29,483 nt of DNA from a virus (Monodnaviria > Loebvirae > Hofneiviricota > Faserviricetes > Tubulavirales > Inoviridae). The stretch lies in the IMG/VR virus record IMGVR_UViG_2851976983_000002; one strand, 5' to 3'. Position 1 is the stretch's first letter. The number at the start of each line of letters is the position of its first letter. The notes under the pieces were generated by a model. The model made no database searches, was not told where the DNA came from, and worked only from the letters and a program-made list of their open reading frames with translations. Shown piece after piece: positions 827 through 1,024 of the stretch. The translations under genes were made by a program, and so were the position numbers.

Positions 827-1024
827 ATGTCTCACGAGATTGTTTACTACGATTACATTCCTGATTATGGCGTTAATGCCTGCATTGATGGTGAATGGGA
901 TTTTTTCAGCTCGTTTAATGAGCTGGTCATTGCATGCTTAGAAACAATCGGGGATGACTTCGTTCTGGTATCTGTTGCACTGCCTTCTGGTTCATGGGTC
1001 GGTTATCAGGAGACTGTTTGCTAA
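827..1024 (+). CDS. Hypothetical acidic protein (65 aa), translationally coupled to rep
   Basis: ORF stop overlaps rep start (TAATG at 1022..1026); no recognisable motif. Confidence 0.4.

Follow-up and report, generated by a model that had tools for sequence, protein, structure and literature searches.

ORF65 and its place in the prophage array

The stretch of DNA analysed here, a window of 29,483 nucleotides (nt) from the inovirus record IMGVR_UViG_2851976983_000002, consists of four head-to-tail filamentous-prophage units in the order A-A-B-B, and we focused on ORF65, a small open reading frame (ORF) of variant A at 827..1024 (+). It runs from ATG 827 to TAA 1022-1024, encodes an acidic protein of 65 amino acids (aa) and is the first cistron of the early (replication) operon; an identical copy is present at 9097..9294 (+) in the second tandem unit of variant A. 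As the original prediction had stated, the product is strongly acidic and rich in Tyr and Asp: it contains six Asp and five Glu residues, no Lys or Arg, a single His, five Tyr and a YYDY motif, with a calculated charge of -11.4 at pH 7 and a pI of about 4. Equally correct was the description of its end, where the stop codon shares its final A with the ATG of the following rep gene (TAATG at 1022..1026, +, in the context TGC-TAATG-AAG; rep ATG 1024-1026). In the E24377A-type prophage, PGAP annotates ORF65 as the hypothetical protein WP_000017777.1 (RefSeq).

Upstream of ORF65, a sigma-70-like promoter (TTTACA 764-769, a spacer of 18 nt, TATGAT 788-793) is bracketed by two copies of GCGCATGCG at 753-761 and 796-804. 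These copies lie in a regulatory region spanning 751..807, the inverted-repeat arms of which occupy 751-761 and 797-807. Within the window GCGCATGCG is found only here and in the second A unit, at 4 sites compared with 0.21 expected. We regard the repeats as putative operators and TTTACA-TATGAT as the putative early promoter, and ORF65 is therefore the first cistron after a promoter-like element whose control looks operator-based. The presumed variant A repressor is encoded divergently at 477..689 (-). It is a basic 70-aa protein (pI 9.6; PHROG 2503) with no Pfam match, and it would repress the early promoter through the repeats.

The rep gene of the first A unit (1024..2220, +) encodes a 398-aa Rep_trans (PF02486) rolling-circle initiator belonging to PHROG 453, and the second Rep_trans copy lies at 9294..10490 (+) in the other A unit. 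The two A units occupy positions 1-8270 and 8271-16540, and the B units extend from about 16541-24562 and from 24563 to the window end. The structural and assembly genes, among them those for the Zot-like pI and the pIV secretin, are 98-99% identical between the A and B units; no homology exists between the replication and immunity modules of the two variants. The A module comprises the divergent 70-aa basic protein, ORF65, the Rep_trans initiator and a 111-aa PHROG 14411 protein, and the B module a divergent helix-turn-helix (HTH) protein, a G2P-type initiator (PF05144, PF05155) and a gene-V-like single-stranded DNA (ssDNA)-binding protein. Variant B indeed has no counterpart of ORF65, as had been noted earlier: between its divergent HTH gene and the G2P-type rep (17246-18373) there is no plus-strand ORF of at least 30 aa.

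Conservation of ORF65 and its family

The window holds many ORFs of ORF65-like length, many of them spurious, and length alone is no evidence of a gene. The Shine-Dalgarno-like element 5 nt 5' of ATG 827, GGTG at 818..821 (+) as read from the sequence, is moreover weak; homologues carry GAGG or GGAGG at this position. Both points would suit an unexpressed chance ORF, but the comparative data speak plainly against it. ORF65 matches PHROG 3104 end to end (residues 1-65, E 3.5e-25). A first homologue search gave seven close relatives, and searching 1.84 billion representative proteins exhaustively with a profile added only three more small ones; once the added relatives and a Vibrio sequence had been included in the profile, 87 proteins were recovered from E. 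coli, Proteus, Photorhabdus and many Vibrio species. A one-genome-per-species scan returned no homologue, presumably as the representative genomes do not carry the prophage. The ratio of nonsynonymous to synonymous substitution rates (dN/dS), calculated by the Nei-Gojobori method on codon alignments, ranged from 0.05 to 0.2 between homologues, with values of 0.14 for the window and locus L030 (26.7 synonymous and 25.3 nonsynonymous differences), 0.14 for L013 and L026, 0.05 for L025 and L026, and 0.10 for V. cholerae (L016) and a V. alginolyticus phage (L011). Judged by these substitution patterns, the protein sequence is under purifying selection. Because of the PHROG 3104 match, the 87 homologues, the purifying selection and the invariant synteny described below, we consider ORF65 a genuine, conserved gene for a small acidic protein. 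With dN/dS well below 1, the same synteny and a confidently predicted fold, the chance reading retains a negligible probability and is effectively refuted by the conservation data.

Alignments of the family revealed near-invariant residues at Y7, D9, W24, D25, S29 and L33, and acidity is kept throughout (charge -5 to -13) at sizes of 63-90 aa. ORF65 shares sequence, position, size and charge with this pre-rep family, PHROG 3104. Distant members were recognised in V. cyclitrophicus phages, fs1 and VGJphi, with hhalign probabilities of 96.5-96.8% (96.8% for VGJphi gp13). On sequence grounds, ORF65 is thus the E. coli member of a catalogued inovirus family that takes in PHROG 3104, the 67-aa ORF of VGJphi and fs1, and the 71-aa ORF of the f237/Vf33 group. 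The literature searched contained no functional study of ORF65 or its family. The small ORF is unannotated in the reference records of Vf33, Vf12 and VfO3K6, and also in that of fs1 (D89074; L119 993-1196), which has a 45-aa ORF in another frame (997-1134).

As the window rep starts at position 111 of the 447-position PHROG 453 profile, we considered whether ORF65 could be a detached N-terminal Rep domain. This was ruled out, since no long protein with the domain occurs among the 1.84 billion proteins searched. A 115-aa protein, P0024 (L032 1245-1592), consists of a family member fused in frame to the first ~40 Rep_trans residues, and we rejected it as a natural ORF-Rep (Rosetta-stone) fusion: rep is cut there by an insertion sequence (DDE_3 transposase), and the joint is probably a frameshift in a decaying prophage. 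The sole other match beyond the family size range, a repetitive 539-aa protein, is probably spurious. In f237-like phages the rep frame is open across the entire small ORF, which leads to 447-aa 'long Rep' calls (L083, L089, L093 and other Vibrio loci), and such over-extended Vibrio calls probably explain the ~110 extra N-terminal positions of the PHROG 453 profile.

The position before rep and translational coupling

In every context examined, the family member lies directly 5' of a rolling-circle initiator gene, on the same strand and overlapping it. The next gene encodes a Rep_trans homologue at 80/80 IMG/VR loci and at 11 of the 12 curated loci. The rep ATG is located 0-16 nt before the last base of the ORF at 77 of the 80 and at all 12, respectively; the other three IMG/VR loci have a truncated or frameshifted rep. 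The overlap measures 1 nt at the three E. coli Rep_trans loci (the window, L029 and L030). Proteus, Photorhabdus and four metagenomic phages have overlaps of 8-13 nt, compared with 11 nt for V. cholerae and 17 nt for the f237/VALGphi8 group. At the V. cholerae loci L016, L017 and L018 (3441-3999), an extra variable gene of 113, 145 or 185 aa, one version of which encodes an RNase_T-family exonuclease, stands between a DUF3693 repressor gene and the small ORF, and one prophage of this group adjoins rtxA.

The overlap had led to the proposal that rep translation is coupled to ORF65. Of this, the geometry stands, being real and conserved (12/12 curated and 77/80 IMG/VR loci), but rep also has an unmasked Shine-Dalgarno sequence of its own, AGGAG at 1008..1012 (+), 11 nt 5' of its ATG and within the C-terminal Gly-Tyr-Gln-Glu codons of ORF65. 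All homologous rep genes likewise possess their own GGAG-type Shine-Dalgarno sequence 7-12 nt upstream, encoded by the conserved C-terminal G-Y-[QRG]-E codons of the ORF. As GGAG lies in these codons, part of the C-terminal 'conservation' is that of the rep ribosome-binding site. Overlaps of 1 or 4 nt between stop and start codons are commonplace in bacterial operons, and the geometry permits termination followed by reinitiation in all homologues; coupling is plausible, though modest and of the ordinary compact-operon kind.

The junction was also analysed for structure and for other modes of rep expression. The probability of being unpaired was 0.21-0.57 across the rep ribosome-binding site, compared with control means of 0.35-0.51, and the site is not preferentially paired. 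The fold of the junction is no stabler than that of shuffled sequence (z = 0.27). A local hairpin masking the site can be drawn; with this z value and no conservation in homologues, we discarded it. We rejected a programmed -1 frameshift out of ORF65 into the rep frame, as inspection of 991-1021 revealed no slippery heptamer. The rep frame is open from 958 (L038, which carries the A unit at the same coordinates), and an upstream ATG in this frame at 994 has no Shine-Dalgarno sequence, is not the start at L030 and is not the choice of PGAP.

These results bear on a cis-acting function, in which translation of ORF65 would feed ribosomes to the rep start and set Rep levels, the peptide being secondary. 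Consistent with such a function are TAATG itself, the overlaps of 1-17 nt in all homologues with an intact rep, the C-terminal codons that double as the rep Shine-Dalgarno sequence and the predicted disorder of the last 15 residues. On the other side, strong purifying selection and a confident fold cover residues 1-50, each rep has its own GGAG 7-12 nt upstream, the ribosome-binding site is no more paired than controls, overlaps of this kind are ordinary, and rep is expressed without the ORF at L031 and in CTXphi and VAI1. We consider a mainly cis-acting ORF quite improbable. The related proposal of a leader peptide controlling rep is not supported, on the same evidence, namely the dN/dS of 0.05-0.2 across a confidently predicted 50-residue domain, the separate and unmasked Shine-Dalgarno sequence, and related rep genes that work without the ORF in CTXphi, VAI1 and the L031 deletion.

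Mosaic loci separate ORF65 from the repressor

At locus L029, a repressor 35% identical to that of the window and a different operator region are combined with an ORF that is 92% and a rep that is 98% identical, and the DNA similarity begins in ORF codon 6, at position 842 of the window. At L019 and L008, the repressor is 99% identical and the promoter and the first ten ORF codons are the same; beyond these codons the identity of the ORF falls to 55%, and the rep product is an unrelated Phage_GPA protein of 666 aa. The recombination joints cluster at ORF65 codons 3-10 (835-856), with similarity from 842 at L029, similarity ending near 856 at L019 and a deletion from 835 at L031, and the VYYDY-coding stretch may be a microhomology hotspot. 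The location of the joints at the 5' end of the ORF implies that its body travels with rep. Across 12 loci, the Spearman correlation of pairwise identities was 0.68 for ORF and rep, 0.63 for ORF and the next gene (gene3) and 0.25 for ORF and repressor, with 0.66 for rep and gene3, and family members adjoin five unrelated repressor types. By these comparisons, ORF65 is inherited with rep and not with the repressor.

This pattern undermines the suggestion, made in the original prediction, that ORF65 is an anti-repressor. In that case the acidic protein would bind and inactivate the basic divergent repressor, creating positive feedback once the early promoter fires. The charges are complementary (repressor pI 9.6, ORF65 pI about 4), ORF65 is the first gene facing the divergent repressor, which is the switch-protein position in temperate phages, and the window and L029 repressors have a common C-terminal EELKKKKAM tail. 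That tail, however, lies at the mosaic boundary and may reflect only shared flanking DNA. The five repressor types, the swaps at L029 (another repressor, the same ORF) and L019 (the same repressor, a 55%-identical ORF) and the rho of 0.25 all break the pairing, and searches of Pfam, NCBIfam and functional PHROGs gave no match to a known anti-repressor. The absence of co-variation with the repressor argues against a repressor-specific anti-repressor, and we regard this function as very doubtful.

Other loci have no ORF at this place. L031, with a GPA-type rep, carries a clean deletion of the ORF, in which the promoter, ATGTCTCA and the rep Shine-Dalgarno sequence are retained. Most GPA-type E. 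coli inoviruses show no upstream similarity to the ORF-bearing L019, and L034 and L035 have no annotated ORF there. In pre-CTX/CTXphi and VAI1, rstR is followed directly by rstA with no ORF between them. The ORF is, on this distribution, dispensable in some lineages. In the GPA-linked copies the near-invariant D25 is lost, and among these copies 4 nonsynonymous differences stand against 1 synonymous, compared with an omega of 0.08 for the adjacent rep; these small numbers suggest that constraint was relaxed once the ORF had parted from its Rep_trans partner.

The predicted fold suggests a protein-binding surface

AlphaFold2 was run once with 8 and once with 56 aligned sequences, and both runs agreed on a model with a mean pLDDT of 81, rising to about 90 over residues 11-50. 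The predicted strands 4-11, 15-20 and 23-27, helix 30-40 and strand 45-49 form a beta-beta-beta-alpha-beta arrangement, and residues 51-65 are modelled as a low-confidence, floppy tail. None of 56 family members had a match in Pfam, NCBIfam, PADLOC or PDB sequences, and neither an HTH nor a ribbon-helix-helix domain was found in ORF65, in line with the earlier statement that it lacks a recognisable DNA-binding motif. Because the protein contains no basic residue (Lys or Arg), binding of nucleic acid is very unlikely. Structure searches yielded weak and mixed matches against the PDB with Foldseek (best E 0.59) and unnamed phage proteins in BFVD (best E 0.02). The predicted fold may or may not resemble the N-terminal domain of the HicB antitoxin (beta-beta-beta-alpha-beta); a HicA toxin gene is not adjacent, the neighbours being the repressor gene and rep. 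In the model, the conserved Tyr, Trp and Asp residues lie on the small sheet, which suggests a protein-binding surface.

A possible accessory factor of Rep_trans replication

We tentatively favour the reading that the ORF65 product serves the Rep_trans replication module in trans, as an accessory factor that binds protein and is expressed together with Rep. Ribosomes ending translation of ORF65 would re-initiate on rep, and this modest coupled component would ensure co-expression of the two proteins. The ORF65 protein would then act in trans by protein-protein binding, with its exposed conserved Tyr, Trp and Asp residues contacting a basic surface of the replication machinery, on Rep itself or on a host protein that serves Rep_trans initiators as a co-factor. 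In this way the protein would tune rolling-circle initiation and would not control immunity. We favour such an accessory factor because the adjacency to rep is strict and ancient; the Rep_trans link at 80/80 IMG/VR loci, the ORF-rep rho of 0.68 and the relaxed GPA-linked copies point in the same direction.

Several observations weigh against it. Family members also precede the unrelated Phage_GPA initiator, and many Rep_trans phages have no such ORF (CTXphi/pre-CTX, VAI1). The CTXphi initiator RstA replicates without a partner of this kind, so Rep function itself is independent of the ORF. Co-inheritance could reflect the mere linkage of overlapping genes, the rep-gene3 rho of 0.66 being equally high. 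The fold and sequence searches showed no similarity to any replication factor.

The presence of the ORF before two Rep families and its absence from many Rep_trans phages keep alive a different explanation, in which ORF65 is an early anti-defence or host-takeover decoy: the acidic protein would mimic nucleic acid or in another way block a DNA-binding protein conserved in the hosts, for instance a nucleoid factor or an enzyme of restriction or defence, from the moment the early promoter fires. The place before rep would then be no more than the slot of earliest and strongest expression. We judge this explanation somewhat unlikely. The dense negative charge, the lack of Lys and Arg and the acidity kept family-wide fit a decoy, as does retention across different repressors and two unrelated Rep families, which would suit a target common to Vibrionaceae and Enterobacterales hosts. 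The ORF is accessory and dispensable, and the V. cholerae relatives hold variable extra genes in the same slot. Set against this, PADLOC gave no match, and the fold and sequence searches showed nothing above noise level for Ocr, ArdA, gp5.9 or Acr proteins. Family members were always next to rep (80/80), never in a different type of phage or in the variable cargo regions typical of morons, and the acidic-decoy idea derives from composition alone. It is less likely again, though conceivable, that ORF65, VGJphi ORF67 and the f237 71-aa ORF are previously unrecognised early acidic decoys of inoviruses directed against a conserved host nucleic-acid-binding protein. The target would be either an enzyme of restriction or defence or a factor involved in replication or the nucleoid, and the decoy would act when the incoming ssDNA has newly become the double-stranded replicative form. 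If true, filamentous phages of enteric pathogens would thereby gain their first described function in anti-defence or host takeover.

Wider prophage context

In its replication region, variant A is 100% identical to prophages in the chromosomes of enterotoxigenic E. coli, for example in E24377A, where the A unit adjoins hipBA. A 57-aa hydrophobic protein (WP_001409659.1) is encoded at 1-174 (-), downstream of the repressor gene and past a terminator-like hairpin at 368-391 (-); L008 has a comparable ORF of 51 aa. Pairs of direct repeats of 86 nt and 65 nt occur in the non-coding stretch 3' of the secretin gene (7606-8127, 15876-16397 and 24185-24423), where each A unit has two copies and each B unit one, and may be origin or attachment sequences. 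The window contains no dif-like 28-mer with three or fewer mismatches, and no LexA box was seen by eye in 700-826. Defence-type genes lie by related prophages (L029 1-456; L014 777-1403) and encode a SIR2-family deacylase, a CAP12/TIR-domain protein and DUF6236.

ORF65 belongs to filamentous prophages integrated at dif in enterotoxigenic E. coli, and its relatives occur in f237, the phage of pandemic V. parahaemolyticus, and in VGJphi and fs1, V. cholerae phages that help to mobilise CTXphi. Whether ORF65 modulates Rep, inhibits a host factor or serves only to bring ribosomes to rep matters for understanding how replication of Rep_trans-type inoviruses is switched on.

Comparison with known systems

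RstC, encoded by the RS1 satellite of CTXphi, is a small inovirus anti-repressor that has no DNA-binding motif and acts by protein-protein contact. It shows no sequence similarity to ORF65 in any search and is encoded after rstB, not before rstA, and ORF65 does not co-vary with the repressor. T7 Ocr, ArdA and T7 gp5.9 are small, very acidic proteins that are expressed first on entry and have no enzymatic motifs; the resemblance of ORF65 to them is compositional only. The CopG-RepB operons of rolling-circle plasmids likewise have a small first cistron that is co-transcribed with the initiator gene. CopG, however, is a basic ribbon-helix-helix repressor, whereas ORF65 is acidic, has a predicted beta-beta-beta-alpha-beta fold and is accompanied by a separate, divergent repressor gene. 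The comparisons made here give no support for ORF65 as a leader peptide, an anti-repressor or a Cro/CopG-like regulator, and ORF65 shares with DNA mimics only the acidic composition.

The ORFs of its own family are a different matter. VGJphi gp13 (NP_835484.1, 67 aa), the fs1 ORF and a 66-aa ORF of V. cyclitrophicus phages lie, like ORF65, directly 5' of a Rep_trans rep, with an end that overlaps or abuts its start, and they share with ORF65 the core I-Y-[YF]-D ... G-[IV]-N ... F-[FY] ... E-[LF]. The fs1 ORF is also net acidic, with 9 Asp/Glu compared with 3 Lys/Arg by hand count. These VGJphi-type ORFs differ from ORF65 in their C-terminal half, their Vibrio hosts and a lambda-repressor-like repressor (ORF136), at about 25% identity. 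The 71-aa ORF of f237, Vf33, VfO3K6 and VALGphi8 (PHROG 2419 region) occupies the same place, overlaps rep by 17 nt and has a charge of -8.4; its N-terminal 30 residues are 44% identical to those of ORF65, its C-terminal half is not alignable by BLAST, and the repressor of this group is a DUF3693 protein, unlike that of the window. Placed among these relatives, ORF65 is unremarkable as a small hypothetical phage gene, as is its operon coupling, though the gene is conserved and found in medically relevant inoviruses.
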